From Mytilus edulis (taxonomy: Eukaryota), in assembly GCF_963676685.1 (NCBI RefSeq), contig NC_092346.1, forward strand, positions 94,054,001-94,118,000: a DNA stretch of 64,000 nt, written 5' to 3'. Positions 1 to 42,783 of the stretch are shown one piece after another. The position numbers were made by a program, and so were the translations under genes. The notes under the pieces are model-generated. The model was not told where the DNA came from and ran no database searches. It saw only the letters and a program-made list of their open reading frames with translations. Numbering within the stretch: position 1 is the stretch's first letter; every line of letters starts with the position of its first letter.

Positions 1-863
1 TCTTTTAAACTAAGTTTTACTTTGTGCATTACTGTGTATTTTATTTATTCCACATTTAATAGATGTATAAGGGGTGGGTAAACATCTCAAATAATACAGT
101 CGCATTGTTGTGCTAAGATAAGAGATGTTGGTCAATTTTGACAAATTCGGCAAGATTTCAACCAAATTTAGGACCAAGAAACATAGAGCGCAGGCGTGGA
201 CACACTTAATATTCAAATAAGACACGTAAATTTAAAAGGAATACTTTGTTATTAATTTTAGTCACTTTCAGTAATTATAAACATGCTTTTATATGGAACT
301 TGTTTTCTCGAATTAACAAGAACGAGCGTATGAAAATTATGTCAAAGATGCAGCAATCTTCGAGTCCGATGTCATTATCGTCGTAAACATTATGGTTCGG
401 TCTGCGGTTAACATTTTATTGAGATAATGAAGTTGTCAAACCTCTTGATGGTGACTATAGTTACACACACATGTCTTTGTCTAGCTTAAATGGATTTGTA
501 TGATACCTTGTGTGATTCAGAGATATTTTTTAAGCTAAAAATTGATCTTATTTTAAAACATTATAATACTGGAGATAGTCTATGATTAAATTTTTAAAGA
601 CCCGATGAAATCTTCATGGATTGCTATGAAACTGCGACAACAGCTAATCTTAAAGATCAAGAATAGACATCTGGACATCGAAGGCGAGTCACAGTACCCG
701 TTAAAGAATACTTTTGTGTATTACATACTTTTAACTTGTATTCGTCGCTAATTGATATCAAAATTAGGAGGGGAAACATGTCGTTTAGATCTTAGTTTTC
801 TTTTTATATATTTTTCAAATATAAGAAACTTTGACTTGATAAAGCCGATAGTTTCTATTGAAA

Positions 864-13394: not shown

Positions 13395-13450
13395 TTGGAG
13401 TGAGACAGTAATTTATATTATAAAACAAATGGGCGATATCGAAACATGGT

Positions 13451-13739: not shown

Positions 13740-14218
13740 CTAATCATAGATACAAAAGAAAGTTAAAAAGGCCATATGAAGTACGTACGACCTTGAAGAG
13801 CATTGAGAACCAAAAATTCCAAAATTTGTTGCCAAACACAGTTAAGGTAATCTATTCTTGAAGAAGAAACGCCTGATTATTTCAAAATTTCAAAAAAGTT
13901 TTGTAAACAATTAATTTTTAAATGTGACCATATCAATGATAACTCATGTCAACACAGAAGTGCTGACTACCTGGCTGGCGATACCCTCGGATATGAGTAA
14001 AAATTCCACCAGCAGGTGTATCGACCCAGTGGTTGTAAATAAACTCATCATATATACCAAGATTAAAATTTTGTATTAGCGCAAGACGCGCGTTTCGTTC
14101 CTTAAAAGGCTTATCAGTGACGATCGAAATCAAAAAAGTAAAAAAGCCTAAATATAGTACGAAGTTCAATAGCACTGAGGACTAAAAGTTTTGCCGAATA
14201 CATCTAGGGTAATCTATG
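13740..14218 (-). mobile_element. Retrozyme-like repeat, more than one monomer (~370-nt period), degenerate hammerhead
   Basis: GAAGAGCATTGAG at 13795 recurs as CAATAGCACTGAG at 14167; hammerhead remnant (CTGATAA...GAAACGCGCGTC) at ~14080-14122 on the minus strand. Confidence 0.7.
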
Positions 14219-14247
14219 TGTTTGTTATACATTTTCGAACCATATAA

Positions 14248-17055: not shown

Positions 17056-17690
17056 GTGCAAAAAGTAAAATCACACAAAAATACTGAACTCAGAGGAAAA
17101 TCAATTCGGAAAGTCCATAACCACATGGCAAAATCAAATAACAAAACGCATCAAAAACGAATGGACAACAACTGTCATATTCCTGACTTGGTACAGGCAT
17201 TTTCAAATGTAGAACATGGTGGATTGAACCTGGTTTTATAGCTAGCTAAACCTCTCACTTGTATGACAGTCACATCAAATTGCATTATATTGTCACCGAT
17301 GCGTGAACAAAACAAACAGACACAATAGGTAAAAATGTCAAAAATAGGGATACAGCAGTTAATATTGTGTTATCATCTTAATCTCTATAAAAACAACAAA
17401 TGTAACGAAGTAGCACAAAAAGGCATACATCCAATTAACATCCTCATTTTGATTATATTATACGATTTTATTTGTCTATGTAAAATGCAACCATCAAGGA
17501 AGGAGGGTTTTGAGTACTGGTGAAAAAATTGCGCGTTTGAAATTCGCACAGGTAGACATGAAATTATTTTGTCGTTCAAAGTATGACGTGTTGCATAAAT
17601 ACAGTCACGCAAAATAGATATAACAAAAACTGACTTGACAGTTAAAGTAATAAAAATAAATAAAATAATAGTGTGGTTCTTAGCTCCATG
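17056..17690 (+). repeat. Interspersed repeat family (AAAGTAAAATCACA...AAAGTCC...CTTGGTACAGGCATTTTC); related copies at ~40670, 41550, 62000 and 62800
   Basis: Dispersed similar copies in the window. Confidence 0.55.
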
Positions 17691-22850: not shown

Positions 22851-25800
22851 TCATGAAAAAATTGTATGTAGTGGGGACCAGAATCTTTCATAAGATGCTG
22901 CTCTATTATTTTTGTTTGCAATATAAAATTCATTAGATTGGTATTGTTTTATTCTGAATTTAAGTCCTATAAAACTAGGAGCTATATTTCTTAACTTACA
23001 TCTAAAGATGTAGTTTTTAGCTATAATTATTAACAAATTTATAAACAAACTCTTAGTAATAAATCCCAATAAAATTTCTGTCTTACTAATGCTGAAATGC
23101 TCATCAACTAATTTAATTTTCTGTAAAAATGACAACCAGAAATTGTATGTAATATTACAATCATAAAATAAATGTTCTATTGTTTCCTCTTCCTCATTAC
23201 AGAAGGTACATAGACTTGTTTCCTTTTGCTTAATTCTATATAAAAATGTATTAGTAGGTATAATTCTATGTAATATTTTATATTGAAAATTCTTTAAATA
23301 TGTATCCCTACAACATCTTTTTAAAAGAGAAAAATACTTAGACCATTCTGAGATTTCAGAATTTGTTACATTTCTCATATGGGAGTATGCATATTTTATC
23401 TACAAGATCTCTGTATACAAATTTTAACTTCTTATTTTCCAAGAAAATGCATCAAAAGGAACAAAGTTTTCTAAGTTCAAATCACAATAATCTTTGATGT
23501 ATTTTTTTTATATATTTTGGAATGTTAGATAATAAACTATAGTATCTCAAAAAAATTTCCAAATTAAGTTTTTGTCTTACTTGTTGGAATGTTAGTAGTG
23601 ATTTACTTTGACAATCTACAATGTCCCTTATAAACTGTATACCATATAACTTCCATTTCATATAAACAGGGTATTCAGATATTGGTATCAAGTTTAAAAT
23701 ATCCAATGACAAAATTTCTGGAGCACATAACTTTGTATAAGGCTTTGCCATGTGTAGACATTCAAATATGTCTTTCCAAAATGAATTTTTTAAGCGATTA
23801 GAAATTTCTTTAATCTTATCATTTTGTAATGTAAAGACTCTGTCACCACCTAACTGTTTTAGTTCTGCTAGTAATAAATTCTGCCAAGTACCATCTGAAT
23901 TTGATAAAAATCTCTTTACCCAAGATAATTTAAGATATGTACAGAAAGACTGCAAATGCACCATATTTAATCCTCCCTGTGAAAAATCTGCAATAAGAGT
24001 ACTACGCTTTACTCTATCAGTCTTACCATTCCAAATGAAATTAAAAAACATAGCACTCAGCTCATTTAATTGTGAGTGAGGTAAATTTGGGAGGGCAGTC
24101 AACAAATGAATCAGTCTCGGCAATGCCAGAGTCTTAATTACAGTAATTTTACCTAGTAATGTTAATTTTCTATGTTGCCAGCTTTTTAGTATAGCTGAAA
24201 CCTCTTTGATCTTTTTTCTAAAATTAATATCAAGAATACTTTTTAAATCAAGTGAAAAATCTATTCCTAAAAGTCTAAAGTTTGTGTGTGACCACATAAG
24301 ATTGTAATTAGGACACAATATTTGATCAGAATATTTTTTGTTACCAATCCAAACAGCTCTTGTCTTTGATTTGTTCATTTTCAATCCAGATAACATATAA
24401 AAAGAATCAAAACAATTGAGGCTTTCTTGTAGTGATGTCTCACTACCATCTAAAGTTAGAAAAGTATCATCTGCATACTGACTTAAAAGTGTTTGTTTTT
24501 CATTAATGAGAATACCGTGAATTTTGGGGTTTGACTTAAGTTTCAACGATAATAACTCTACACCAATAACAAACAAATAAGGGGAGAGCGTGTCACCTTG
24601 TCTGCAACCTCTCTCAAGATTGAAAAAATTTGACAAATTGCCATTGTTGATTACACAACTTTTAGCACTTTTGTAGAGAGTCTCGAACCATCTGCACATC
24701 GAAGGACCAAAATTAAAACTTTTTAATGCTTTTTGTAAAAATACCCAGTTAACAGAGTCAAATGCCTTTTCAAAATCAACTAATAAAAGTAAGGCGCTCA
24801 TGTTGTGATATTCAAGATAATGCATCAAATCATACAATAATCTAGTATTCTCCCCAATGAATCTCCCCTTGATAAATCCCTTTTGAGTGTCACTAATAAT
24901 AAATGGTAATACAGACTTAACTCTGTTTGCTATAGCTGCAGAAGCTATCTTTATGTCTGTATTTAATAGGCTGATAGGTCGCCAATTACCAATATATCGC
25001 TTATCTTTTCCTTCTTTTGTTATACAAGTTATGACACTTTGATATTGAAAATCTGAAAAAAGTCCAGATTCATATCCATAGAATAATGATCGATAAACAA
25101 ATGGTCCAAAATCTCTCCAAAAGAATTTGTAAAATTCGACAGTAAATCCATCGCTTCCTGGGGATTTCCCATTTTTCATCTTACTCAATGCTATAGCACA
25201 TTCCTCATATGTCAAGTTACCCTCACACAGGTCATGTTGTTCCTGTGTGAGAGTAACATCATGAGAAAAAAAGCTTTCACTTGAACAATCAATTTTTCTC
25301 TTTGAACACAAATTTTTATAAAAGTTATGTTGTTCTGAGAGAATCGTGGATTGGTCAGATGTATGATTACCCTGATCACCAATCATTTCAACCATTGTCT
25401 TCTTTATAAAATTTCTCTTTTCTAATTTTAAAAAGTATTAGGAACATTTTTCACCATTTTCATGCCAGTTTGCCCGGGACCGTAATAGTAAACCCTCTAT
25501 CTTCTGTTCTCTCATGGATTCTAACTCCACTTTTTTATCATTTAAATTGGTCTGTACAGCTTCAGTCGGGGCTGTATTCATAATTATATCTAAATTTTGT
25601 ATATCTTCTTCAAGTTTCAGAGTAGCTCTTTTTTCTTCTTTCGATTTAGATATACTGTGTGTAATGGATAAGGATCGGATTTTCATCTTCAGTACTTCAA
25701 GAAAAAATTTATCGTTACAAGAAAATTGTACATGAAATAGGTCATCTCTACTGTCTGAAAGATAGAACTCAGAAACAGTATCCTTTATACACATCTTTAC

Positions 25801-26599
25801 CTTTTCAACATATACAGTATCTCTCAACAACTGTGAATTAAACTTCCAATATCCCTTACCCCTTTTATCAAGACTGGCAGAAAATGTGAAAACAATGGCT
25901 GAGTGATCGGTTTTGTATCCAGGTATAATTTGCATTTTTCATAAGTGAAAATAAGTCTTCGCTCACTAAAAAATAATCTAATCGCCTCTGCTTGATAGGA
26001 GAGGTTTGACGCCAAGTAAATTTTTTGTCATCTGGATGACAGGTTCTCCATGGATCTAAAAGTTCAAAAGTTTGTGAAATTTCTTCAATCTTATTACGAG
26101 AGTTCAAATTTCTATTGTGCAGAATATTATAAGTGTCCATATGAAAATCTTGTACAACATTCCAGTCACCACACATTAAGATGCTAGTATTAGTATAGCA
26201 AGAGATGTTGTGTAAAATATCACTAAACAATGATGGTTCATCAGTATTAAATCCATAAACAGTGACAAAGGTTAGCCTTTGTTCATATAATGATAAGTCT
26301 AAAACAATAAAACGACCTTTCTGGTCTATCTTAGAATCATGAATCTTAAAATCTAGACCCTTGTTAAACATCACACTAACACCAGCACTTTTATTGTTGC
26401 AGTGACTGAAAATGCATGTATTACCCCATTCATCTTGCCAAAGTTTCTCGATATCCTCATTACTGTGAGTCTCTTGAAAACAAACAATAGATGCATGTTT
26501 ACCTCTTACCCAATTAAAAATATCTAATCTTTTTTTCTTGCTTGAAAATATGCCCCTTACATTCATAGATAAAACTGTAATATTATTATCAATACTCAT
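22851..26599 (-). pseudogene. LINE ORF2 (APE endonuclease, reverse transcriptase, zf-RVT) broken by ~3 frameshifts
   Basis: SMNVRG/FQETH/GDWN/RLDYF endonuclease (25868-26599); GYWKFN (25438-25935); KSPGSDG, WRPISLLN, DFEKAFDSV, RQGD, QYADD RT (23482-25395); CTFC...ETIEHLFYDC (22851-23378). Confidence 0.9.
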
Positions 26600-27212
26600 T
26601 AAGTAATATGTTCAATCAGACAATAGAAAAGCAAAGCAGTACAATACTTAAAATAAAAATGCATACCCATACTAACTTCACATTTATACATCACAAATAT
26701 ACACAAAAGATGGCGCTTGAAACAATATTTAATATACATCAGATACTTTTTACAGATTGGCTTCATATGATAAATAGCATATATTTTTTTATTCTGATAG
26801 TTTGGTGTTAAATGCTTTATTTTCTTTTTAAATTAACAGAAATGAGAACCTAGTATAATATTTTCTTTTTTCAATATTTATATAAATTTTTAGTGTGTTG
26901 AGAACGATTTTATGATAAAAATAAAAAAAAAGTTTTTGAAAATGGAGAATTAGTATAATTATATAGTTAAAAATGTTTTATTCAACTCTAAGCAAATCTT
27001 TGAACATATTTTCCTTAGAAAGTTATGAGGGAAAATTTCTTATAGTATATATAATATATAATAAAACATTCTAGTAATATAGAGTTACCTCCCATTAATC
27101 AAGAAAGCTTTTCCACTATTGATAATTAGAGTTACCTCCCATTTATGAACAAACAAAGAAGCAAAAAATTACCACAATTAATAAGATAGAAAATATTTAC
27201 ATACTTGAAAGT

Positions 27213-27696
27213 TTATATGCTTGAAAGTTTTTTTTTAATTTTCTCATCTATATTGTCATAAAGATCAAATTTGATTCTGTACACACTATCCTTCAATTTA
27301 TCATATACACTACAGTTGTAGAACCAGGCATTATTTAGCATCACATTTGTATTTAGTCTAGCTAATAGTCCAAGATTTCTTTGGGTTATATCGTCATGAA
27401 ATTTAATGTCATTCTTCAACCCCTTCTTATTTCTCATTATCTTGATTTTAATTTCTGTGTTACGGACCTTTGCTATCACAGGTTTGATGTTACCTTCTTT
27501 TCCTGGGATTCGATGTATTGCTATGACATCTGATGGTTCTATCTCAACATTTAAGTCTTTCTTCACCATTTTCACGAAAACATCTCGTAAGTTCTCATTT
27601 CTCTTTTCTGGAAAATTCACCATTCTTATATTATGTTTCCTGGAGTACTGTTCATTATAGTTTGCAGATTTAAGTGCATCTATGGACCTATGGTTG
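27213..27696 (-). pseudogene. LINE ORF1 C-terminal remnant (L1-type RNA-binding)
   Basis: EQYSRKHNIR...AIHRIPGK...FHDDIT motifs typical of L1/Tx1 ORF1p; cut off at the LTR. Confidence 0.75.
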
Positions 27697-27909
27697 TGAA
27701 GTGTTTGTGTGGGCTTGCTAATAACTTACCAACAATAACTGTCAGATTAGCGTAGCTTCTATAATATCTAGATTTCTTGTAGGAGCTGTGTAACACACCT
27801 CAGACATAGACCATGGGTTAGAACAGGAAGCCCCGAATTGCACGATCTCACTTCCGGCTAAGTATATATATTTCTCCTGAGAGTAGGAGCACCTCTGAGA
27901 TTCACTACA
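27697..27909 (-). repeat. 3' LTR (213 bp)
   Basis: Matches 37926-38142 apart from a few substitutions and one 4-bp indel. Confidence 0.95.
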
Positions 27910-27918
27910 CTCCTCCCT
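27910..27918 (-). other. Polypurine tract
   Basis: AGGGAGGAG immediately before the 3' LTR on the element strand. Confidence 0.8.
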
Positions 27919-28133
27919 GTCATCTTCTTTTTGTTGATCATTCTAGGGATTGTGAAGGCAATTGCAGTAATGTTCCTATCCGCAGAATTTTCATTTTTAT
28001 CCATGTCTTGATATACATAACACGTTATTGCGAATTTCCAAATATTAAAAATATAATTCAATGTTATTAAATGTTAATGACTTGTCGGAATGACAGGTGT
28101 GGTTGTGAACGTTCCTTCACCATTCCGATCTCC

Positions 28134-28490
28134 TTCCTTACACAAAACTTTAGGTGAACAGCACAGCTGTCGCACACTAGAATTCTGCATAACATAAATT
28201 ACTCCGATTCTTGATGATCCTATTCTTACACAAAATCCTAGATGGACAGCACAGCTGTCACACACTAGAATTCCGCATAACATAAATTACTCCTGATTCT
28301 TTATCCTCCTATCCTTACACAAAATCCTAGATGGACAGCACAGCTGTCACACACTAGAATTCCGCATAACATAAATTACTCCTGATTCTTTATCCTCCTA
28401 TCCTTACACAAAATCCTAGATGGACAGCACAGCTGTCACACACTAGAAATCCGCATAACATAAATTACTCCTGATTCTTCATCCTCCTAT
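28134..28490. repeat. Tandem array of ~4 x 89 bp in the Gypsy 3' UTR
   Basis: GACAGCACAGCTGTC recurs at 28245, 28334 and 28423 (variant at 28158). Confidence 0.9.
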
Positions 28491-28641
28491 CTCATTCCTT
28501 CCACCAAGGAATTTAATTACATATATACATATAAATGTCCATCATTTAAACATTCTTTAAATCCTTTTAAAGAAGTAATATTACTATAGGTCCACATAAA
28601 AAATATGTACATATATATAAGAAGTCACAAGTATTTATATC

Positions 28642-30150
28642 TCACTGTAATTTATAGATTTTCTTTGAATTTTCGGTAGTAATTTTGAAAACATCTTCAA
28701 TGGGTTGTTGTAAAAGTTCAGATATTTTAAGTGCAACTGCATGAACGGAGTAAGGATTTCCAATGGTGTGAGAATGTAGTGGGATATATGGAGCATCTAA
28801 TTCCAAAACTAAACGTGTAATGCCAAAAGTTTTCACAATTTCTACAATATTGGAGTATCGGTCCTTCAAAATAAATGGGGTAATGCCAAAAACAATGTTA
28901 GAGAATTGACTGACGGCTGCTGAGTACAGTTGAGTGGAACATGTGAAACAATGCCAATGAATTAATTGGTCCGGTTTGCATATTTCACTTAGAATGGCCA
29001 AAACATGTTCATGCAGTGATGGTTTTCCTCTTGAGTGTATAACGATAGTTAAATTCAATGCTGCTGCCAAATACAGTTGCTTTCTAAAATATGTAATTTG
29101 TCGGTTGAAATCTCTCCTTGAGGGGTTGGTAGAATCATCTAAAACAATCTCCCCTACTGCCACTGTTTTTGTTGATTTTAATAAATTTTGAAGATCAGTC
29201 CAATTATGTTCCAGAGATGAAGTTGATGATGAGCTTATAATTTTAGGATGAATGCCAAAGGTGAATCTTAAACGGTTATCTTTCCTGAATTCGCTGCGCT
29301 GTGCTGAGTTTGGCCAAGCTGACGGAAAAACAAAGTTAACAATGGCATATTTTAGTTCTGTCTTATAAATGCTTTGGGAGCCAAGGTCATCCAGATCCTG
29401 GAAAGCTCCACTACCCATCTGCCTACATAGTTGGTCTAGATGGAAGTGAGAGTCTATGATGGGTAGTGGTCCGGATAACTTTGTGCTCAACTGTCCAATT
29501 TGAAGTCCGTCTTTGTCCTTTCTTTCCTCGAATTTTAAAAGCCAAAGTTGTTCGTCTGAATTCAAATAACCAATGAGATTTTTGAGAATTTTCCAGTGAA
29601 GAATATGATAGATTTCCATTAGTGGAGTGGCAGGAATTTTGTAATCAGCAGCAGGCTCCATACAATTCAATTTCAAGAAAGAATCCACGAGTTTAACTTC
29701 AGAAATATGGAATTCTGTAGGCGGCAATTGTGTCCTAATTTTCATTATGGCATTCAGTTTCTCTTCAAGGCCTACTGGGTAGGAAGTGCCTAATGAACGT
29801 GCTAACTCTAGAAGACCGTTCATTAGCTCAGCGTACATCACTTCTCTGTTCTTAAAGGTAGCATCAATGGCATTTGTGGGATGACAGCGAGTTATGTGCT
29901 TGTTCAGGAAATTGGCTGTCTGTTCCTGAGTACCACCAATCCAACAGGCAGTCTCTGGCGCCACATACCATGGTAGATGAGTTTGAATGGTGTGTCTTCT
30001 TGGGTTGGTAAATGTGTGAAAGCAAATATCACACTCCCTGTGTCTCAAGCGGACATTTGTAGCCTCACCTCTGATAGCTATCTGCCTTTTAGGTTCAGTT
30101 AAGTGGTCCTGGTTCTCCTCCTCCTCATAATCCAATTCTTCCTCACTCAT
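28642..30150 (-). CDS. Retrotransposon-encoded TatD-family DNase with N-terminal acidic tract and C2H2-like zinc finger(s), 502 aa
   Basis: IIDSHFHLD, FGIHP, VAVGEIVLD, IVIHSR, IHWHCF, LVLELDAPY, NPYSV..VA, TTENSKKIY are the TatD motifs; CDIC-x9-H-x4-H at the N-terminus. Confidence 0.9.
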   Translation of the reverse strand: MSEEELDYEEEENQDHLTEPKRQIAIRGEATNVRLRHRECDICFHTFTNPRRHTIQTHLPWYVAPETACWIGGTQEQTANFLNKHITRCHPTNAIDATFKNREVMYAELMNGLLELARSLGTSYPVGLEEKLNAIMKIRTQLPPTEFHISEVKLVDSFLKLNCMEPAADYKIPATPLMEIYHILHWKILKNLIGYLNSDEQLWLLKFEERKDKDGLQIGQLSTKLSGPLPIIDSHFHLDQLCRQMGSGAFQDLDDLGSQSIYKTELKYAIVNFVFPSAWPNSAQRSEFRKDNRLRFTFGIHPKIISSSSTSSLEHNWTDLQNLLKSTKTVAVGEIVLDDSTNPSRRDFNRQITYFRKQLYLAAALNLTIVIHSRGKPSLHEHVLAILSEICKPDQLIHWHCFTCSTQLYSAAVSQFSNIVFGITPFILKDRYSNIVEIVKTFGITRLVLELDAPYIPLHSHTIGNPYSVHAVALKISELLQQPIEDVFKITTENSKKIYKLQ

Positions 30151-30254
30151 TATACCAGTCTAGAAAATACTGAATGAACCTACTAATTATTTATTGTTAC
30201 TTAATTTATTTTTTTTTATAAGGCTTTGAAAATGAGCAAATACTATTACCTTTA

Positions 30255-30367
30255 TGTGTGTTACCTTCGGCTGTTGTTTGCTCTATGGTCGGGTGGTTGT
30301 CGCTTTAACATATTCACCATTTCCTTTCTCAATTTTATCATAAAAATAAAAAAAAAAAAAAAAAAAA
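30255..30367 (+). repeat. Short interspersed repeat 3' fragment plus A-tract between pol and TatD
   Basis: ACCTTC..GCTGTTG..TATGGTCGGG..CATTTCC..CTCAATTTTA matches the ends of 54851-55090, 56790-57425 and ~1950-2020 (minus). Confidence 0.6.
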
Positions 30368-30438: not shown

Positions 30439-33400
30439 TCAAAACTCTTCGCTAACTACATCCACCACATAATCTGACAAATAGCTTGGCAGAAACCTCT
30501 TTCTTTTTACTCTATCTGATATTTCAGTTTTATCAGGTACTTTTAAAGTATTCTTATCAGGAGACAAGAGAACAGCACTGCTGTCACTATTGCCATTACT
30601 CATGTTAGCCAAATCCAATGGATCAGCACAACTACCATGATTAATATCATTCTCACTGTCTAAATCCAATCCAGGTACTTTTAAAGTATTCTTATCAGGA
30701 GACAAGAGAACAGCACTGCTGTCACTATTGCCACTACTTTCATCATTCCTATTCAATTGGACAGCACTGCTGTCACAGTTTGAATATGGAAGTGAAAATA
30801 AAACATCTGACCAACCATCAGGCAACTCGTTTTCTTCTTTTCTTGAATCCATATTCCCCTCTGGAACACACTGACCAAACAGACGGTTTCGAAGTCTCTT
30901 TATCCACAATGGGACAATTTCGTCGTCACATTGTTTTATCCTATCATGATGTATTACCATCTCTTTCTTTCTACTTGTAATTTCATACAACACAGGGGAC
31001 AATACTCTGGTTACTACATAGGGTCCCTGCCAGGGAGCCCTGAGTTTCTTGCTCTGACCTTCTTTTGATGTTGAATCCAACTTGAAAACAATATCACCTA
31101 CTTCGTAAGTTTTATGATACAATTTTATATCGTAAGTTCTTTTCTGACGAAGCTGAGCTGCCTGTAATTTTTCGCGCGCAAACTTATGAGCTTCCTGGAG
31201 AGTATTTTTTAGGTCAATTACATGATGAACGGTTTCCTTGGCTTCAAAATTGACAGAACAAGTTCCTGTTAGTAAATTGATTGGATGTAGTACTTCCCGA
31301 CCTAACATCATCATGTTAGGTGTAAACCCTGTCTGTCTATTCACAGTTGATCGTATAGCACCAGAAATGGTTTGTAAATGAAGGTCCCAATCTTTCTGTT
31401 TTCCCTTCAAATAACATCTGATGGCTTGTAAAATGGTTCGATTAAATCGCTCAACTTGTCCGTTAGAACATGGTCTATATGGAGTGGTCCTAGTTTTGAC
31501 GATTTGTAACAGTCTGCAAATATCATGAAACAAATGACCGTCAAAATTTTTCCCTTGATCGGTGTGAATTTGGACTGGACATCCCAATCTTGAAATGAAA
31601 CCGTCTAGTAATGTTTTAGCCACAGTAATTGTGTTTTGATTAGGTAATGGAAACATTTCCATCCATTTTGTGAATTGATCTACTAACACTAATACATATT
31701 TGTTAGCAGAAGAACTCTCGTGTAGTGGTCCTAGAATGTCCATGTGCAATTTTTCCATAGGAATTCCTGCGTGAAATTGACCTAGAGGCCCCTTTGGTTT
31801 GACGTTGGCTTTTTTGTTGACATTACAAGTATGGCAAGACTTCACATAATTTCTCGCGTCTTCCCTTAACCCAAACCAAATGTAATTCTGTTTTAATCTT
31901 TCAATAGTTTTTGCCTGTCCAAAATGCCCTGATAGTTTAGCATCATGACAATTCTCTAAGATTTTGTGTCTTAAAGATCTTGGAACAACTAATAACAATC
32001 TTGAATGAACTGGATCTAGCCATTTATAGCATAATATACCATCCTTAAGTACTAATTGATGTTTACAATTCCATAAATGTTTAATAGAAGGGCTACATAA
32101 ATATAATTCATGCTCCTCTGGTTCTTTTTTATCCTCTAACCATACTATCAATCTGTTAAGTTCCTGATCTTTCCTTTGTTCAGCTCCCATATTGGTAATT
32201 TCAGACTCGCTTATCCAATTACAATTCACTAAACTATCTAAATTGGTTTCGTCCAAATCTTCTTCTTGCTCTGAAACACTCCTTACAGACAATGGAACTA
32301 CATAATCGACATCATCTTCAAACGAACTCCAGACTTTTTGTGCTCGAGTACAATATGAGCAACCACCGCAAGGTAGCAATTTTATATCTGCACCAGCATA
32401 ATAACAATTACAAGAATCTAAATCATCTGGTCTCCTTGATAGTCCATCTGCATTGGTGTGTAGTTTCCCTGCTCTATGTTGTATTACCATGTCATATTGA
32501 GACAATTCCTCTAACCATCTGGCTAGTTGTCCTTCAATCATTTTAAACCTTAGTAGCCATGTCAAACTGTTATGATCTGTCCTTATGATGAATTGTTGGC
32601 CTAATAAATAATTCCTGAATTGTCTGGTAAATACTACAATCGCTAACAGTTCTTTCCTAGTGGTACAATATTTCCTTTGGGCTGGTGCCAATACCCTACT
32701 TGCATAACATATTACATACTCTTTTCCACCAATTACTTGTAATAATTCTGCTCCAATGGTGGTGTGGGAGGCATCGGTATCTAGAAGGAACTTTTCCTTT
32801 GGATCTGGATATGCTAATGTAACTGAGTTGACAAGTGCCTGTTGTAATGATTCAAAAGCTATCTGGTGTTGCTTTTCCCATTGAAAAATTACTTTCTTCT
32901 TTGTCAGAGCATACAAAGGCTCGGCAAGGGTGGCAAATCTTTTAATATGTTCCCTATGATAGTTGGTAAACCCAAGGAAAGATTCAACAGCTTTCTTCGT
33001 CAGAGGAACCGGCCAATTCAATATAACTTCTCTACTAGAGGGATTAACAGCTATTCCTTTCTCATTTACCAGTTTACCCAAGAAAATAACTTCTTTTTGG
33101 AAAAATTTGCATTTTTGTGGCTTTAATTTCAAATTATTTTCCCTGAATCTTTCTAGTACAGTTCTTAAATTTACAAGATGATCTTCAAAATCTTCACCCA
33201 GAACAATAACATCATCAATGTATGCTAGACATATTTTCCATGTCAAACCTGTCAAAATTAACTCTATCATCCGCTGAAAGAATGCAGGACTGTTACATAA
33301 TCCAAAACTGAGTCTTATGTGTTCGAAAAGTCCATATTTAGTTATGAATGCTGTCTTGTGTCTATCGTCCTCGTGTATCTCAGCCTGATAATATCCTGAT

Positions 33401-34851
33401 GCCATGTCTAGACAGGACATAAATTTACTACCTCTCAAAGTGTCGATACAGGTCTCTATTCTTGGAATCGGAAATGCGTCTTTTCGAGTAATAGAGTTTA
33501 ATTTCCTGTAATCAATACAGTACCTGATCTTCCCATCCTTCTTGCGAAGTAGTACTGGGGCTGCACTCCATTCTGATGATGATGGCTGTATGACTCCTCT
33601 ATTTAATAAATCTTTGAGATGCTTTTCTTCTTCTTCTTCTAACCCTAGTGGTGTTCGTCTCATTCTTTCTCTTACAGGAGCTGAGTTTCCAGTGTCGATC
33701 ATATGCTTAACCTTGGTATAATGTCCAATGTCGAGATCATGTTTTGAGAAGGTATCTTTAAAGTCCAGCAATAGTGACGCCAATCTCAGATTTTCGCTTA
33801 AATCTAAATTTTCCTTTGACGAATCTAATAAAGGTTTTAATTGTACAGGAAAATTGGAATACATTTCATCCCATTCATTTCTTAAGTCTCTAAGTTCCCT
33901 CTCCACTGTGTTAACTGACCTTACTGATGCTCTGTCCTCATAATCACACCTTTCCTCATCTATCACCCCATAAATTTCCATTGCTGTACCAATGAAGCGA
34001 TTTTTCTTCAGACTTATGGACTTATCTGTCAAATTGTTTAGGATAATAGGTACTCTTGAATCAGCTTTGGTCAAAATATTTGGCATAATCAGCCCATTCA
34101 AAGACTTACTTGGTTGAATAGCCACTTCATTTTTAAATTCCTCTGCCAATCTTACTGGTAGTCTGACAGTTGAATTAGGTGGAACAATAAGAGTCTCTTC
34201 CAACGTTATGCGGCAAATTTTCAAACTACTGTTTTCTGATTTAACTTCATTAATAAAATGTTTTTCACCTCTAATTGTTATTGACAAATCAGTCAAATCT
34301 ATCACGGCATCAAGATGTTTAAGAAAGTCTAATCCTAGTATCACTTGATCATTGATTTTAGCTACTATAATTTTCCACTTGGTATCAGTCTTCCCTACCT
34401 TAACTGTAACACATTCTGTGTACCTTGCTGTAATGCTATTGTCTTTTCCAGCACCTTGCAACATTAGCGAGCCTTTAAAAATTACCGGAGGCTTAAGTTT
34501 CTTTGCAAATTCTTCACTCATAAGTGTGACCTGGGCAGCTGTATCAATTACTGCGTTTACAGTTACCTCATTAATTGAAATACCTAACACAAGAGTATTG
34601 GATTCTGGATTTCGATCACTTGGATACAGTTGAACCTCACGTAATTGAGGATTATCAATACCATTCTTTGTATCTTCCTTTTGGCCACTATTGAAGTCTG
34701 TCAAGTTACAATGAACAGCACTGCTGTCACTAATTGTAACCTGTTTTTTCCCGAATACCTCTGGTTTCAATTCTCTAAAGGGAGATAATTGGCCTATTTG
34801 AGGTTTTTGGACTGATGAGCGACCTACATCTTCAGTCCTTGCTCGTTTAAA
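30439..34851 (-). CDS. pol: Gypsy Pol (aspartic protease, RT, RNase H, integrase), expressed by -1 frameshift from gag
   Basis: IDTAAQVT protease; RYCIDYRKLN, LDMASGY, AYIDD RT; DTDAS/TDH RNase H; H-H-C-C and D,D35E integrase; GPY motif. Frame is open from the slippery site. Confidence 0.95.
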   Translation of the reverse strand, partial: FKRARTEDVGRSSVQKPQIGQLSPFRELKPEVFGKKQVTISDSSAVHCNLTDFNSGQKEDTKNGIDNPQLREVQLYPSDRNPESNTLVLGISINEVTVNAVIDTAAQVTLMSEEFAKKLKPPVIFKGSLMLQGAGKDNSITARYTECVTVKVGKTDTKWKIIVAKINDQVILGLDFLKHLDAVIDLTDLSITIRGEKHFINEVKSENSSLKICRITLEETLIVPPNSTVRLPVRLAEEFKNEVAIQPSKSLNGLIMPNILTKADSRVPIILNNLTDKSISLKKNRFIGTAMEIYGVIDEERCDYEDRASVRSVNTVERELRDLRNEWDEMYSNFPVQLKPLLDSSKENLDLSENLRLASLLLDFKDTFSKHDLDIGHYTKVKHMIDTGNSAPVRERMRRTPLGLEEEEEKHLKDLLNRGVIQPSSSEWSAAPVLLRKKDGKIRYCIDYRKLNSITRKDAFPIPRIETCIDTLRGSKFMSCLDMASGYYQAEIHEDDRHKTAFITKYGLFEHIRLSFGLCNSPAFFQRMIELILTGLTWKICLAYIDDVIVLGEDFEDHLVNLRTVLERFRENNLKLKPQKCKFFQKEVIFLGKLVNEKGIAVNPSSREVILNWPVPLTKKAVESFLGFTNYHREHIKRFATLAEPLYALTKKKVIFQWEKQHQIAFESLQQALVNSVTLAYPDPKEKFLLDTDASHTTIGAELLQVIGGKEYVICYASRVLAPAQRKYCTTRKELLAIVVFTRQFRNYLLGQQFIIRTDHNSLTWLLRFKMIEGQLARWLEELSQYDMVIQHRAGKLHTNADGLSRRPDDLDSCNCYYAGADIKLLPCGGCSYCTRAQKVWSSFEDDVDYVVPLSVRSVSEQEEDLDETNLDSLVNCNWISESEITNMGAEQRKDQELNRLIVWLEDKKEPEEHELYLCSPSIKHLWNCKHQLVLKDGILCYKWLDPVHSRLLLVVPRSLRHKILENCHDAKLSGHFGQAKTIERLKQNYIWFGLREDARNYVKSCHTCNVNKKANVKPKGPLGQFHAGIPMEKLHMDILGPLHESSSANKYVLVLVDQFTKWMEMFPLPNQNTITVAKTLLDGFISRLGCPVQIHTDQGKNFDGHLFHDICRLLQIVKTRTTPYRPCSNGQVERFNRTILQAIRCYLKGKQKDWDLHLQTISGAIRSTVNRQTGFTPNMMMLGREVLHPINLLTGTCSVNFEAKETVHHVIDLKNTLQEAHKFAREKLQAAQLRQKRTYDIKLYHKTYEVGDIVFKLDSTSKEGQSKKLRAPWQGPYVVTRVLSPVLYEITSRKKEMVIHHDRIKQCDDEIVPLWIKRLRNRLFGQCVPEGNMDSRKEENELPDGWSDVLFSLPYSNCDSSAVQLNRNDESSGNSDSSAVLLSPDKNTLKVPGLDLDSENDINHGSCADPLDLANMSNGNSDSSAVLLSPDKNTLKVPDKTEISDRVKRKRFLPSYLSDYVVDVVSEEF
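34804..34851 (-). promoter_or_regulatory. -1 ribosomal frameshift signal
   Basis: T TTA AAC heptamer (34845-34851) in the gag frame, followed by a GGACTGA/TCAGTCC stem with possible AGGT/ACCT pseudoknot; pol is in the -1 frame with a TAG just upstream. Confidence 0.8.
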
Positions 34852-36746
34852 GTCCCCTCTCTAAGATTATTATTTGGAGATGGTGATCTGTTGCGTCTCA
34901 TTGGCGACCAACTTTTCTTTGGACACTGTGTACTGTAATGGCCCATTTCCCTACACGTATAGCATTGTATATCCCGTATATCTCTGGTTGGACTTCGTCC
35001 TCTTGGTGAAGGCGACCTTTGGCGATCAGCAGTGGTTTTGGGACTGATTGAGTTGATAATCTTCTTGATGTCTGATTTAATGGTCCAGATATGTTGTTCT
35101 GTAGTTGCCATTCTTGTTTCCATAGTCTCATACTTTTTCTGTAAGTCTTGCATACTAGAATTATTTGCCGTTTTGACTTGACGTACTAAACATTCTGTAC
35201 TTTCTTCATCTGAGTCATCATAAAACTGAACCCTTTTTACCTCTGGCTTTCTATACCCTAATAAAATCTTTTGGTTGTGAATGGAGCTCTTAACATATTG
35301 TAACGCTTGGTCCATTGTATTTGGGTCTTTCTCCATGGCAAATAGCGCTGCTTTTTTGTCCGTACACCCCTTCAAAAAAGCGTCAACGGCTATAGTATCA
35401 ACTACATTCTCTGGTGTATTTAGATAACCATCTGTTGCTAGTTCCTGTATCCTTTCGGCAAACTCCTCTATCGACTCATCCTCTTGCAATTGACGCCTAA
35501 TGGTGTGAGGTAAATCTTTATTCCCAAATCTTTGACTCAACTTTTGAACTAACACGTCATAGTCCTTTTGAACGGTCTCTTGGCGAGTACTCACAAATTT
35601 CAGAGCCTTATCTCTGAGGCATTCAATTAGACGATCTAATTTTTGTTCATTAGACCATTCATACTTCCTGGCTATATGGTTAAATTGCATGAAATACGGC
35701 TTCCATTCTGATTTCCCATCAAAAATGGCTAGCTTTGGTGGTGTTGGTCCAGAACGTTGATTGGATTTAACATCCTTACAGCTCGAGTCATCTTTTCCCT
35801 TCCCTGATGTTGGAGTTTTCCCATTGTTATTAATCTCTTCTTTTGAGTCTCCAAGTTTATCTGGGCTAAATGTTTGTCTGGATTTAAGCTTTGCAGAATC
35901 ACTATACCAGGAACTAGCTGACATCTCAGTTACTTTACCCCTAAATATATCTCCTGGAGCTAGCTTTTCAGAAATAAGTCGTGATGTTTTAAAATGCTGT
36001 AATTGCTCTTCTAATGCAGTTAATTTCCTGCCATGTTCTGCATCCCTTTGTTTCATCTGCTTATATTGCTCCTTGCTCCTTTCTCTTTCTTTATCCATCT
36101 CTTGAGCCTGTTCCATGACCTTATCCATTAATGTTTGACGTTCCCGTTGCATGCTCTCCATTTGTTCTGAAAAACCACCTTCTTTTTCTGCCATAGTACT
36201 CTCATACTGATGTTGTAACTCACTCATTTCTTGTTTAATTTGTGTATTTTCAAAACTCAACTCTTTTTGACTTTTTTCCCTTTCCAGTTGATCCTTCTCC
36301 ACTTCTCTTTGAAAATTATCTTTTGTTTGTTGGAGTTCAGCAAGGCATTCCTCTATCTCTGCTGACTTACGCCATAGTTGCTTCTCAAAAGTTACTTTTA
36401 AATCTTCAAGTTCTTTCGTATATTCCCTTTTTGAATGAACTTTGTCTTGTTCTGCAATTAACAACTTTGTCTTATACTGTTCTATTAATGCAGAAGTGTC
36501 ACCTTGTGCTGTTGGTTGCTTTTCTGGAGTTTCTTCCTCTGGACTAACTTCAACTGTGCCATTCCTTATCAATGGGTCCCAAATCGTGTTTGGTACACCT
36601 TCTATCATCTTTAGATCTTCTAATGTCAAGGTGCCTTTAATTTTTCTTGCTTTTATAATTAAATTGGCTCTGGCCTCCCCTATGTCTCTAATTTCCATTA
36701 ACTCTTCTTTTGTCGCAGTATTGATGTTAATTGTCGACATCTTCAC
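34824..36746 (-). CDS. gag: Gag with N-terminal helix-hairpin-helix, coiled coil, capsid-like region and CCHC knuckle, 640 aa
   Basis: ININTATKEELMEIRDIGEARANLII (HhH); FDGKSEWKPY...ESIEEFAERI...AFLKG capsid motifs; CYTCREMGHYSTQC. Confidence 0.9.
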   Translation of the reverse strand: MKMSTININTATKEELMEIRDIGEARANLIIKARKIKGTLTLEDLKMIEGVPNTIWDPLIRNGTVEVSPEEETPEKQPTAQGDTSALIEQYKTKLLIAEQDKVHSKREYTKELEDLKVTFEKQLWRKSAEIEECLAELQQTKDNFQREVEKDQLEREKSQKELSFENTQIKQEMSELQHQYESTMAEKEGGFSEQMESMQRERQTLMDKVMEQAQEMDKERERSKEQYKQMKQRDAEHGRKLTALEEQLQHFKTSRLISEKLAPGDIFRGKVTEMSASSWYSDSAKLKSRQTFSPDKLGDSKEEINNNGKTPTSGKGKDDSSCKDVKSNQRSGPTPPKLAIFDGKSEWKPYFMQFNHIARKYEWSNEQKLDRLIECLRDKALKFVSTRQETVQKDYDVLVQKLSQRFGNKDLPHTIRRQLQEDESIEEFAERIQELATDGYLNTPENVVDTIAVDAFLKGCTDKKAALFAMEKDPNTMDQALQYVKSSIHNQKILLGYRKPEVKRVQFYDDSDEESTECLVRQVKTANNSSMQDLQKKYETMETRMATTEQHIWTIKSDIKKIINSISPKTTADRQRSPSPRGRSPTRDIRDIQCYTCREMGHYSTQCPKKSWSPMRRNRSPSPNNNLREGTLNEQGLKM

Positions 36747-37911: not shown

Positions 37912-37924
37912 ACATCTGACACCA
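37912..37924 (-). other. Primer-binding site, tRNA-Leu type
   Basis: TGGTGTCAGATGT one base after the 5' LTR, resembling the TGGTGTCAGAAGT Leu PBS. Confidence 0.75.
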
Positions 37925-37925
37925 G

Positions 37926-38142
37926 TGAAGTGTTTGTGTGGGCTTGCTAATAACTTACCAACAATAACTGTCAGATTAGCGAAGCTTCTATAATATCTAG
38001 ACTTTATGTAGGAGCTGTGTAACACACCTCAGACATAGACCATGGGTTAGATAGAACAGGAAGCCCCGAATTGCACGATCTCACTTCCGGCTAAGTATAT
38101 ATATTTCTCCTGAGAGTAGGAGCACCTCTGAGATTCACTACA
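37926..38142 (-). repeat. 5' LTR (217 bp)
   Basis: TGTAG...CTTCA on the element strand, adjacent to the PBS. Confidence 0.95.
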
Positions 38143-39483
38143 GTTGCAATCGCTTATTATTGATTATGATGTAAGTGTGTGTAATATTAATCGGTTCTCT
38201 TAGTTATGTATAATAATTGACCATTCACATGTTTTAGTATTTGAAAAAAAACTTTCGTTGCAATCCTTTAAGTGATGAAATGATATCTTTTTTTATAAAA
38301 GTCAATACAAAAGGATGTGAACGAGAAGTTACTACAGGGAATCAAAGTTGCATAAACATTCTTTGTTATATTGTACAATTACCCTTGCTGACTCGATGGT
38401 CGGTAGTTGTCAAATTAAGCATAGCAAATACAAAGAACAATTCAACTAAGAAAAAGGACGCTTATCTATTATAAATTTCATTACATATGTTTGCGGGACA
38501 TTTCACACAACAATGATCATTTATATGGCATCGTGTTGTCAACCTGTAGCACACATTACCGCAAAATTATAGGCTTGCTTATGACGTCTTGAACGTTTAA
38601 GGAGATGTGAGCAATTGCTCTCTATTGCAAACAGGCGTTTGATTCAAAGGAAAACAGTGAGAAATGTCCTGGTATTGAAAAGTATGTAAAAGGGGTTCGT
38701 GTCATTTATTTAAAATCATTGCATCACATATCAATATGGGTTTGTTGTTTCATATATATTTACATTTGTATATAAAAGTTTATCGCGCTCGAACAAAACA
38801 TATACCTTAAAAATGAAGTCTCTTATATATTTATAAATTTATCTTAGAATGTTATTCAAAAAACATTATTTGTCAAACTGCGTAAACTGGTTTCGTTAAA
38901 TATATTAAATTAACCTACGTTAATAAAAAATAGAAGCACCACGAGTGACTAAAAGTATGTATTTTGTCTTTGAACGTGCATGGTGAAGGTATATCCAGAA
39001 TAGAGCTTCGAGTGCATACAATTTTTAAGCGCTCTTTTTCATATTTTCTATATCATAATAACAACCAACTCAGGCCCGATGGTATCATCAGCTCAATTGA
39101 CAGTGCTTTTGTACAGCAGTTATTACATACATTTCCCTAATTGTCCGTTTATAAATTGAGAAACACGCACAAAACAAATGTTCAAACCTGTCTTTTTAAG
39201 GAAACTTGCCTTCTTTTCTCCAGTTCGTTTGCCTAATTGAGGTTTTGTTTTGAAATGATTCTTTATAGTATTGTATCATTCAACTGTCTTCTTAGGATTC
39301 AATTTGACCTTTCACGGAAGCTAGATAAAAATTATCACTAACAATTAAATAAATAAACAACAGTTTGAATCGTTGTTATTCTGATAACGAATTAGTATGT
39401 TTTGAATGTATCAAAGACTTAAATGAGTTGTGCAGAAAAGGTAAAATAACAAAAATACTGATCTCCTAGGAAAATTCAATTAC

Positions 39484-42400
39484 AAAAAATTATCATAGAT
39501 ATAAAAAAAAGTTAAAATGGCCGAATGAATACGAACTTGAAGAGCATTGAGAACAAAAAATTCAAAAAATTGTTGCCAAACACAGTTAAGGTAATCTATT
39601 TTTTGAGGTAGAAACGCCTGATTATTTCAAAAAATCAAAAAAGTTTTGTAAACAATTAATTTATAAATTTGACCATATCAATGATATCTCATGTCAACAC
39701 AGAAGTGCTGACTACCTGGCTGGTGATACCCTTCGGGTATGAATAAAAAGTTCACCAGCAGGTGCATCGACCCAGTGGTTGTAAATAAACTCATCATATA
39801 TACCAGGATTAAAATTTTGTATTTGCGCAAGACGCGCGTTTCGTCCTCAAAAGGCTAATCAGTGACGTTCGAAATCAAAAGAGTAAAAAAGCCTTAATAA
39901 AGTACGAAGTTCAAGAGCAATGAGGAATAAAAATTTTGCCAAATACAACTAGGGTAATCTATGTGTTTGTTATACATTTTCGAACCATATAATCATAATA
40001 GATGGTTTTTTTTCTCATTTGTATATATAAACATCATGAAAAACTGGAAGCGTATCACAAGTTAGACTAAAGATGCATCACCTCTCCCCCCCCTATTTTT
40101 GGTTGGGTTCATGTCGTTAGTGTATGGTTTCCTACGTTGTGTGTTGTGTATTTTTGTGGTCTGTTTGCCTTTTACTTTTTTAGCCATGACGTTGTTTGTT
40201 TATTTGAAATTGAAAGCCTTTATTTTACTCATACCACTATTATATGTCAAAGAAAATTCCATGAAGTTGTTTGATGACTTTATATTTATCAAAATGTATA
40301 GACGAAAGATACAAAAATGTATAGATGAAAGAAAAATATCTACACATGTCGATGAACAAAAACCAACAAGACGGTTTTTTTTCGGCATATGAGTTTTGAA
40401 TATCTGTTTGGAATCTTCTTCCTGCTTAATTAACGTATCTTTCTACTTTCAGTCCATAGACTTACCTACCCATTTTGAATTTACATTGGTGCTCGCTACT
40501 TTTGTAATTATATTTCATTTCCTAACCACCTACTATGATTCTCAAGTACTCGTCTTTTGATGAATCATTTGGGTTTTCAGTCTCTTACAGTATCTCTCAC
40601 TAATAAGTGATGATATAATACTAATGAGAAAGTGTTTCACATTAATTTTTATTTTTTGTTTAATAAAGGGTAAAAAGTAAAATCACAAAAGTACTGAGCT
40701 TATAGGAAAATCAATTCGCAAAGTCCATAATCACATGGCAAAATTAAATAACAAAACGCATAAAAAACGAATGGACTGTCATATTCCCGACTTCGTACAG
40801 GCATTTTCAAATGTAGAAAATGGTGAATTAAACATGGTTTTATAGCGTTAACCCTTTCACTTTGATAACAGTCTCGTCAAATTTCGTTATATTTACATTG
40901 ATGCGTTAACTAAACAGACAAAATAAATAAGATAGTCAAAATATGGGTACATCAGTCATCATCGTATAACAATTTTAAAAGGAACAATTTAACAGAACAC
41001 AAACTCCTCAATCTGCAAACACATTCATTGATTTGTGTGTCTGACGTCAGAAACTTTTATACGTCACATAGATTTGTCGTTCAATGTGCCTACAAACAAT
41101 TTTAAAATTTACATAGGCAATGTTAGCGTACAGGGTTAAAAAATCAAAAGTATGTCAGAATAAATTTCAGAAATACACCCTAGATTTAAAATAGTCCAAA
41201 ATTTATCTATAGAATTTATAAGAATCCCCAAATAGTTAATTCTACTATGCGATTAAATGATTTTGACGTTTGTGGTTCAACGTATTTTGTAATTGTTAAT
41301 AGAAATATATCATAATGACATAATATAGAACAATATCAAACTGACGGGATCTTTTAAAGTACAGAGTCACGTTATAAGAACCAAAGATATACAAACAGTC
41401 GCATATACAAAACACACCACAAACAAATGAAGGACAATACAAACACATTGACGAGATGTATAAGTACCGAGCCACGTCATGGTAAACGATACAGTTACAA
41501 GGTAGGGATAATGTCAATAATGTTAAACAGTTATTTTTCGTGACGTCAAAAGTAAAATAACAAAATAATGACTAAATGGAATTTTCAAAATGGAAAGTAC
41601 CTTATCAAGTGGCTAAATCAAAAGTTTAAAACACACCAAACGAATGAAAAACAACATTACTGTTATATTTCTGACTTGGTACAGGCATTTTTTCGATGTA
41701 CAAAATGTTGGATTAAAACATACTATTCATGACTTTAATTTAATATCTATAATTTTAAGTTATAAGTTATAAACTTGATATGTGATCGAGTTAGTTTGAC
41801 TCCTTATCGCATGTTTGCTTGACGACTAATGATACACTACAACTGTGAACAATTTGGGTATAACTATACACATTTCAAAGCATATACTAGTAGAACGTAG
41901 ACAATTACAATATGAAAAACTGACAATAAATACCAAGAACAGGTTCTGTACATTTTAATGACGGACTGTACAATTAAATCGAACAACAAGACGGTATATT
42001 TGATATGGTAAAACATGTTAGCCTTACAACAGATCCCAAACAGAGAAATGTCATATTTGTTTCTTAACGACCAGACGATGCTACGTATTTTTACATAAAT
42101 AATTTTCAAACAGAAACATGTGTTAGAAACATTTTATTAATGGTATGCGTCGATTAAATTAAAGACACCTAACCTTTGAGACACTTTTTTAAAAGCAGAA
42201 CATTTCTTTTCGAATGCATCGCCTTTTATCAATGAGGCAATTGCTCACTTCTCTTTCAGAATTTCAGACGTCAAAAGGTAGGCACATGTTTAGCGGTATT
42301 ATGTGCTAGATGTTGGCAAAAGATGCAATGTGAATGTTCATTGTTGTGTTAAAAGTCCAACAAAAAATGTAACTGAAATTGTAATACATCAGGGTCCCTA

Positions 42401-42783
42401 TCCTAAGTTTAATTTGTTTTCAAAATTCTGAATTAATCATTCAATATGCTTCGAATTCATTGGACGACGGACAAAAATTTAATCAACATGATTGATTGTA
42501 GAATATAACTATGTATGTTTGCGCAACATATGGAGCTGTGATGTCACTGCAGCAACTTCTCACCCACATCCTTTGATATTGACTTTTATGAAAAAACAAT
42601 ATCGTTTCCCTTCTTAAAGGATTCAAACGAGAGAACTATTCTTAGTATTTAGTTGGAATGAAGTACACAATGCATAATTTGTTATTGAGTGGAACACGAT
42701 TATAATTTTTGTGAAAGTTTGACCTATCTTCAAATGATAGTTAACAAAGTATAAGTTATAAGAAAAATGTATGTTTAAGTATA
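39484..42783 (+). repeat. Direct segmental duplication of ~60830-63990 (begins with a retrozyme-like copy at 39484-39962)
   Basis: Co-linear near-identical sequence with small indels. Confidence 0.85.

Follow-up and report, generated by a model that had tools for sequence, protein, structure and literature searches.

The analyzed window, i.e., the whole 64,000-nucleotide stretch of Mytilus edulis contig NC_092346.1 (positions 94,054,001 to 94,118,000), contains on its minus strand a 10.4-kb Ty3/Gypsy LTR retrotransposon. The element is bounded by a 5′ LTR with TG...CA ends (37926..38142; minus strand) and a 3′ LTR (27697..27909; minus strand), which agree at 209 of 213 aligned bases, and is flanked by a 4-bp target-site duplication (27693..27696 on the plus strand, second copy at 38143-38146). 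Such 4-bp duplications were also found in two other copies from the same clade. The PBS (TGG; ~37915-37924, minus strand), whose primer we take to be tRNA-Leu, follows the 5′ LTR, and the PPT (~27910-27921) lies directly before the 3′ LTR. Together with the PR-RT-RH-IN gene order, the capsid of Gag (recognized in its relatives) and a zinc knuckle, these features define the element as Ty3/Gypsy. Two of its RT motifs had no match in the four supplements of a survey of mollusc Gypsy elements (C-clade, MolGy1-16; PMC6238403).

The gag gene (34824..36740; minus strand, as are all of its modules) encodes a protein of 638 aa, composed of: (i) an HhH_3 domain with a ComEA-type (HhH)2 fold (residues 1-65; 36546..36740); (ii) a proline-free E/K/Q/R-rich region (residues ~85-255; 35976..36488), delimited by its composition, whose charged, coiled-coil-like character suggests a coiled-coil stalk of ~170 residues; (iii) the capsid region (CA; 35256..35744), which is better conserved than the rest of Gag (distant families share 55-75% identity); and (iv) a CCHC zinc knuckle (nucleocapsid; 34917..34967; zf-CCHC E 1.9e-5). 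The Retrotrans_gag and PNMA models of Pfam gave no match in the window Gag itself at E≤0.1 and match its relatives. The ORF is identified as Gag because it carries the CCHC knuckle, has relatives that match these models, and lies between the LTRs before a PR-RT-RH-IN pol. At the end of gag, where pol overlaps in the -1 frame, there is a T TTA AAC heptamer (34845..34851; minus strand), encoding a Leu-Asn pair that shows (almost) no variation among 15 Gags. This heptamer, presumably a slippery sequence, is a probable site of ribosomal frameshifting, and Gag-Pol would thus bear the HhH domain as well.

The pol gene (30439..34770; minus strand, -1 frame relative to gag) encodes protease, RT, RNase H and integrase in the Gypsy order. 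It is followed by a short fragment of a host repeat (30263..30337), present in this copy only (a gap in nine of nine close copies), on which reads of a high-copy repeat stack. Farther on, a pyrimidine tract with AG, a putative splice acceptor (30160..30175; minus strand), precedes by 9 nt the ATG of ORF3 (28642..30150; minus strand; 502 aa). The ORF3 protein has an acidic N-terminus, then a C2H2-like zinc finger plus helical domain (~29491-30033; minus strand) and a TatD domain (28651-29457; minus strand; E 1.3e-39; H235, H237, E334, H372, H400, E450, D452). The 3′ untranslated region contains approximately four copies of an 89-nt tandem repeat (28118..28491). The family is young, since the genome search found 11 other loci whose HhH is 89-98% identical to that of the window copy.

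Several further features lie in the window. A LINE-like element (22851-27623), with a fragment of ORF1, an endonuclease and an RT spread over several interrupted frames, adjoins the 3′ LTR. Insertion of the retrotransposon within the ORF1 of this LINE was considered and rejected as unproven, LINE sequence being found on one side only. An ORF of 379 aa (8020-9159) had no significant Pfam match, and three regions (11875-17242, 39503-42772 and 59074-63994) are several-kb dispersed repeats with 92-99% identity, in both orientations, probably representing other young transposons.

A preliminary description of this DNA had proposed that Gag opens with a ComEA-like helix-hairpin-helix module, naming a profile search and a structure prediction of residues 1-65 as the means of checking it; both bear the proposal out. 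The quoted peptide begins the 638-aa ORF, although the start had been placed at 36746, an upstream GTG that adds two residues, and the ATG is at 36740. Residues 1-65 match Pfam HHH_3 (PF12836) with E 4.3e-9, the HHH_3 scores being 36.8 and 31.5 bits against a gathering cut-off of 27; the cut-offs of TIGR01259 and TIGR00426 were not reached by this domain (35.5 vs 152 and 32.8 vs 53.1 bits, respectively). Among PDB sequences the matches were EEPD1 (E 9.5e-10; two domains) and ComEA (E 2e-5 and 3e-5). The AlphaFold2 model (pLDDT 84.5; 11-sequence alignment) had Geobacillus ComEA (8dss) as its best structural match in both fold searches: Foldseek gave TM 0.77 and E 1.2e-3, with no match below 1e-3, and VIA gave Z 10.5 and an rmsd of 1.7 Å over 64 residues, followed by Thermus ComEA (Z 8.7) and Tex (Z 8.5). 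The same-fold matches in VIA also include PsbU, GspK and Spt6, whose HhH is a protein-interaction module. Judged from the profile scores and the predicted structure, the (HhH)2 fold of Gag 1-65 is real. Chance similarity is ruled out by a score above the curated cut-off, the fold match and the absence of hits among shuffled sequences (0/150), and a one-off fusion by the occurrence of the domain at 42 loci.

The hairpins themselves depart from the canonical form. The tandem pattern read in the preliminary description holds for the fold, but not for the motifs: in the window family hairpin 1 reads D-I-G instead of G-I-G, its first glycine being replaced by Asp, and hairpin 2 reads G-V-P. Among 109 HhH domains of relatives (see below), GhG occurs at hairpin 1 in 62 of 108 (G/N/D-x-G in 77 of 108) and at hairpin 2 in none of the 94 scored, while the second glycine of hairpin 1 is 93% conserved. 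In the alignment with 8dss (Gag 1..66 = ComEA 143..207), Arg24 of Gag corresponds to ComEA K166. The K164/K166 site is occupied by K/R in 49/109 relatives, at least one of positions 22-24 by K/R in 81/109, and the K193 site by K/R in only 5/93. The net charge of the domain is 0 in the window copy (median -1 among relatives), position 54 is W in 50% and L in 31%, and the C-terminal hydrophobic residues are conserved. In ComEA, K164 and K166 are reported as essential for DNA binding, which is abolished by mutation of K166 (PMC9747964), and for EEPD1 it is reported that the isolated (HhH)2 domains do not bind DNA, the full dimer, i.e., multivalency, being needed (PMC12988330). The residue pattern predicts at most one DNA-contacting hairpin per Gag HhH. 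With a non-canonical hairpin 2 and a non-basic domain, DNA binding, if real, would be weak and dependent on many copies; that multivalent display matters for this fold is indicated by the EEPD1 pair, which alone does not bind DNA. As for the donor of the domain, ComEA scored 48.6 and human EEPD1 34.6 bits on one profile, and a host EEPD1-like exon 46 on another; these per-domain scores fail to separate EEPD1 from ComEA.

The HhH-bearing Gag is widespread in this genome and in bivalve proteins. The genome search yielded at least 43 HhH matches at at least 42 loci. PF12836 was found in 51 of the 76 database relatives of the window Gag; the domain is conserved in related Gags, contrary to the absence that the preliminary description gave as a ground for refutation. 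The labelled relatives come from Mytilus, Crassostrea, Saccostrea and Ostrea (the named hosts are bivalves only), and among named proteins those of Mytilus are the closest. When 50%-identity representatives were searched with a Gag profile, 1197 matched at E≤1e-30, and in the best 150 of these our own profile detected HhH 109 times, almost always N-terminally (shuffles 0/150), a count enriched by the fact that the Gag search profile itself contains HhH; Pfam HHH_3 was detected at E≤1e-5 in 44 of 71 sequences picked from the 109. A word search with the HhH alone returned three close matches.

In the RT-RH tree of elements from this genome (35 rows, comprising one window row and omitting 16 of the 51 available RT rows as near-duplicates of included families), all 24 rows of HhH- or TatD-bearing families form one clade with 100/100 support. 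The 11 rows outside it have neither HhH nor TatD within the 10 kb fetched, in agreement with the earlier statement that HhH is not a standard Gag domain. We consider it shown that, in an ancestral Gypsy element, a ComEA/EEPD1-type (HhH)2 domain became joined to the Gag N-terminus, and that a large clade has inherited the fusion. Several elements outside the clade have an ORF3 with C2H2 fingers only; in L072, L073, L076, L078 and L079 such an ORF3 combines C2H2-like fingers with an acceptor-like signal and lacks TatD. The ORF3 slot may be older than the TatD capture.

Additional domains occur within the clade. A sister subclade (L021, L027, L029, L060, L061, L064, L066, L070 and L106) carries a PHD finger at the C-terminus of the integrase, absent from the window branch, and one branch (L027:356-5818 and L060:3499-8511) has a Tpt1/KptA RNA 2′-phosphotransferase before the protease in pol (Pfam E 8e-36 in L027). 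In a truncated copy (L012:7395-9377), a 661-aa ORF for a Mab-21 protein (cGAS-like nucleotidyltransferase) lies 1.5 kb after pol; it is probably a neighbor, since no further family sequence matched downstream.

Outside the genome assembly, one element, in circular permutation, was found as metagenome contig L106; it encodes an HhH-Gag (own profile E 6e-13; Pfam negative), a pol with PHD and a zinc-finger-TatD protein. It was the only element among the 19 TatD rows placed in the tree from the 80 TatD loci of the metagenome scan, the other 18 standing apart as bacterial-type. A scan of viral contigs for the element found nothing. In the Atlas, the matches to Gag were all generic Gag clusters below 0.9, and ORF3 had no usable match. 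Two sequences (P0204 and P0350), a TatD and an HhH-Gag from such elements, are filed under bacterial genome bins (Ca. Thioglobus and Sedimenticola), which probably reflects host contamination.

The co-occurrence of HhH-Gag and TatD, which the preliminary description had proposed to check, is pronounced: at 36 of the 42 HhH loci a same-strand TatD lies ≤15 kb downstream, whereas the chance expectation is ~6e-4 per locus. The count was made with 106 of 122 TatD matches; those omitted were additional fragments, for the most part belonging to loci already represented. Of the six HhH loci without TatD, five were fetched: each is a truncated or broken member of a family in which TatD occurs in other copies. 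Among 29 further TatD loci sampled, 26 adjoin a Gypsy pol, one a Helitron, and two have no clear context. The seven catalytic-site positions of TatD (HxH plus the E, H, H and E/D metal ligands, as defined in PMC10085689) are intact in 35 of 37 full-length domains, including the window copy. The model of a close-copy ORF3 is a TatD TIM barrel, with 2gzx, 6l25, 2y1h and 1yix as the best Foldseek matches (E ~1e-13). The N-terminal zinc-finger/helical domain of ORF3 had no sequence match in the PDB.

In a 37-row TatD tree (one bacterial row with an internal stop was dropped), the Gypsy, Helitron and orphan TatDs group with the multi-exon host gene L162 (100/99), and 18 bacterial-type rows and a host TATDN3-like gene fall outside this group. 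The label TATDN2-like for L162 derives from its multi-exon structure and long N-terminus, the tree being one without named TATDN2 or TATDN1; one database relative, P0079, is named TATDN2. The TATDN3-like sequence (L161:4814-5587) lies almost wholly in one open frame and is possibly a retrocopy. The Gypsy TatDs form their own clade (90/85) and branch like the RT tree, which suggests a single capture followed by vertical descent. An intronless TatD ORF (L054:1481-2422) adjoins a Helitron Rep/helicase/OTU ORF (L054:3040-7062), and an orphan TatD (L053:1482-2450) is related to it; both group with the host gene, outside the Gypsy TatDs, suggesting a second capture.

ORF3 appears to be expressed separately. 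A pyrimidine tract and YAG precede its start in 12 of 20 elements, vs 48 of 1200 random ATGs (4%) and none of 13 gag starts, and ORF3 is probably a separate, spliced product, as for an ORF in the env position. TatD is encoded in a separate ORF behind a splice-acceptor-like signal, outside Gag and Gag-Pol. Three raw RNA runs, each read to 6-18%, showed no spliced reads at a very low coverage, the depth over the element being 0-2 outside the host-repeat insert; a contig run presumed to be RNA covered 25 of the 30 bins of the element, and no RNA records were among the listed holders of the element. Human TATDN2 is reported to degrade the RNA of R-loops (PMC10711561), and TATDN1 and TATDN3 are described as 3′ exonucleases and AP endonucleases (PMC10085689). 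Most likely the element TatD acts apart from HhH, and would serve for accessory removal of hybrid RNA or for trimming of 3′ ends in the element cycle.

HhH and TatD are separable within the clade. In the L064/L065/L066/L067/L070 group, HhH-Gag is accompanied by an ORF3 that has the zinc-finger/helical part and lacks TatD; the HhH of L064/L066/L070 is still under selection. Conversely, the L023 group, present in many copies, has intact TatD without HhH, which is therefore dispensable there. A topology that excludes this family from a grouping of all HhH-bearing ones was not rejected (p-AU 0.13), and both a loss of HhH in L023 and a gain of HhH after TatD therefore stand. L061 and L063 have two LTRs and lack ORF3. 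A multi-copy non-autonomous LTR family (10 loci fetched: L172-L179, L185 and L186; ~4.2 kb shared, 91-99.6% identical) contains HhH-Gag and half of a Tpt1 domain only, without RT, integrase or ORF3, and the retention of HhH in such a Gag-only family ties the domain to Gag rather than to TatD. With losses in both directions, shared descent is enough to account for the co-occurrence.

The HhH domain is maintained by purifying selection whether or not TatD is present in the element. In four comparisons of distant families with the window Gag, identity was 38-57% in HhH, 25-30% in the adjoining stalk and 55-75% in the capsid. Synonymous sites were near-saturated in these comparisons, and the dN/dS of 0.00 printed for the distant pairs is a saturation artefact and was not used. 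In families without TatD, the dN/dS of HhH was 0.20 (p 2e-6), and between the Gag-only family and its parent 0.07 (p 3e-10). The mutual need implied by the earlier suggestion that HhH and TatD cooperate is not supported, as HhH is selected in TatD-less families and one TatD family lacks HhH. The predicted complex of Gag 1-68 with ORF3 36-503 had a score of 0.00 in two runs in which alignments were not used, which is not evidence either way.

The reading that we favor, with a probability of roughly 40%, is that HhH tethers the particle or the integration complex to host DNA multivalently and independently of TatD. Each HhH domain would keep one working hairpin, providing weak dsDNA binding without sequence preference, and would be placed at the tip of the long coiled-coil-like stalk, N-terminal to the capsid. 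In a particle, with its many copies of Gag, the domain would be displayed multivalently, probably on the outside (an outward placement extrapolated from other capsids), and the capsid would supply the multivalency that the EEPD1 (HhH)2 domains require. The likeliest job of this array would be to keep the particle or the pre-integration complex attached to host chromatin, a function performed by MLV p12 and foamy-virus Gag in their own systems; the preliminary description had already raised tethering to chromatin. Chromatin engagement as a theme also fits the presence of the PHD finger on the integrase of the sister subclade. TatD would be a separate accessory protein, translated from a probably spliced ORF3 message and having no need of HhH. 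Against tethering stand the missing GhG of hairpin 2 (0/94), the rarity of K/R at the K193 site (5/93), the median charge of -1, the replacement of the hairpin 1 glycine by Asp in the window family, the dispensability of HhH in the L023 group, and the same-fold matches to PsbU and GspK, which are not known as DNA binders, and to Spt6, with its protein-interaction HhH.

Alternatively, the domain may have lost DNA binding and been repurposed as a protein-protein module for Gag oligomerisation or docking of a host factor. Such a role accords with the loss of hairpin 2 in 94/94 relatives, the neutral net charge, the conserved hydrophobic C-terminal residues, the finding of PsbU, GspK and Spt6 among the same-fold matches, and the reported mediation of XPF-ERCC1 and Mus81-Eme1 dimers by (HhH)2 domains (PMC12988330). 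It is rendered rather unlikely by hairpin 1, whose second glycine is 93% conserved and followed by a basic residue in 81/109, the pattern expected for phosphate binding. HhH could also act within the particle, where, together with the zinc knuckle, it would condense or chaperone the cDNA or the RNA:DNA hybrid as reverse transcription proceeds. Its presence on Gag and, via the probable -1 frameshift, on Gag-Pol, as well as its retention by a Gag-only family that must depend on the Pol of another element, agrees with this, but HhH and the nucleocapsid lie at opposite ends of Gag, ~170 residues of stalk separate HhH from the capsid, and the domain is not basic, which makes an internal role decidedly doubtful.

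We regard it as improbable that HhH and TatD together make up a single machine, in which HhH loads or concentrates the nuclease on the cDNA. Their association at 36/42 loci (vs ~6e-4 by chance) and their mapping to the same clade would be expected of such a machine; moreover, ComEA-type domains are reported to enhance fused DNases (PMC4777378), and EEPD1 joins (HhH)2 to a nuclease fold. Nevertheless, losses occurred both ways (selected HhH without TatD in L064/L066/L070, intact TatD without HhH in L023), ORF3 is a separate, probably spliced ORF with a zinc-finger domain of its own, and the two-LTR copies L061 and L063 lack ORF3, though trans complementation could apply to them. A broader scheme around the chromatin tether, which seems to us somewhat doubtful, is that an old and large Gypsy clade of animals built a repair-and-chromatin toolkit from host-type genes: the capsid HhH would clamp the particle onto chromosomes, the spliced ORF3, a zinc-finger/TATDN2-type nuclease, would be a second hybrid remover or would destroy by-product cDNA before innate sensors meet it, and sub-branches would have added PHD and Tpt1/KptA.

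Both domains have relatives in known systems. The DNA-binding domain of ComEA (PF12836; 8dss, 8dfk; PMC9747964) shares with the Gag HhH the atypical (HhH)2 fold and the basic residue at the K164/K166 position, whereas in Gag hairpin 2 is degenerate and the domain, fused to a eukaryotic retrotransposon Gag, remains below the TIGR00426/TIGR01259 cut-offs. The closest host relative is the N-terminal (HhH)2 of EEPD1 (9yi2; PMC12988330), in which binding reportedly needs multivalency and of which an EEPD1-like exon (L180) is present in this genome; EEPD1 has two such domains tethered to an EEP fold, and Gag has one. The Juno and Vesta LTR retrotransposons of bdelloid rotifers (PMC5408684) are likewise Gypsy-type, with a nuclease ORF3 in the env position; the same source describes ORF3s as typically spliced and nuclease ORFs as common to different transposon classes, but the nuclease there is a DEDDy exonuclease and here a TatD TIM barrel. 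Like TATDN2 and other group II TatDs (PMC10085689; PMC10711561), ORF3 has the HxH and all metal ligands, and it groups with a host multi-exon TatD gene with a long N-terminus; it differs in being intronless, element-borne, equipped with a zinc-finger/helical N-terminal domain, and a putative nuclease. The clade also resembles other lineages that captured chromatin or nucleic-acid domains. Chromovirus chromodomains are a captured chromatin domain fixed lineage-wide. Similar lineage-wide fixation of a host domain is reported for AlkB in orchid Gypsy elements (PMC9289625) and MBD in arthropod Copia elements (PMC6673714); those domains are encoded in an extra ORF or attached to pol or integrase, whereas the HhH described here opens Gag, and its clade has acquired TatD, PHD and Tpt1 as well.

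The HhH-tipped Gag of a Gypsy clade that usually carries a TatD ORF3 is a real and apparently undescribed variant. Full-text searches (subscription journals, Repbase and Dfam lying outside their reach) found no work on TatD in LTR retrotransposons or Gypsy elements and none on Gag with ComEA. A search for helix-hairpin-helix on Gypsy Gag had one match, on Cer1, and no description in the text available; titles and the beginnings of abstracts retrieved for TatD and retrotransposons mention no TatD ORF3, and for Tpt1/KptA in a retrotransposon two genome papers matched, with no description in the parts accessible. By term search, "TatD" is absent from an annelid survey, a giant-transposon review, the rotifer paper (PMC5408684) and the orchid paper (PMC9289625), and helix/hairpin terms from the first three. 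The elements may already be catalogued without their HhH or TatD having been remarked upon.

For annotation, bivalve proteins labelled comEA, tatD, TATDN2, interaptin-like and DNA ligase 1-like, as well as two in bacterial bins, are transposon products. The clade is a useful case of repeated capture of accessory domains in animals (HhH, TatD, PHD and Tpt1), and its natural loss series within one genome (HhH only, TatD only, both, Gag only) offers a ready comparison. How the particles of LTR retrotransposons find host chromosomes and stay on them is little understood beyond a few models; a DNA-binding-type HhH, confirmed by its fold and fixed on Gag over a lineage of more than 100 clusters at 50% identity provides a small, testable handle on this question, and a capsid-borne DNA tether, if true, would be of a kind that we found in no paper.
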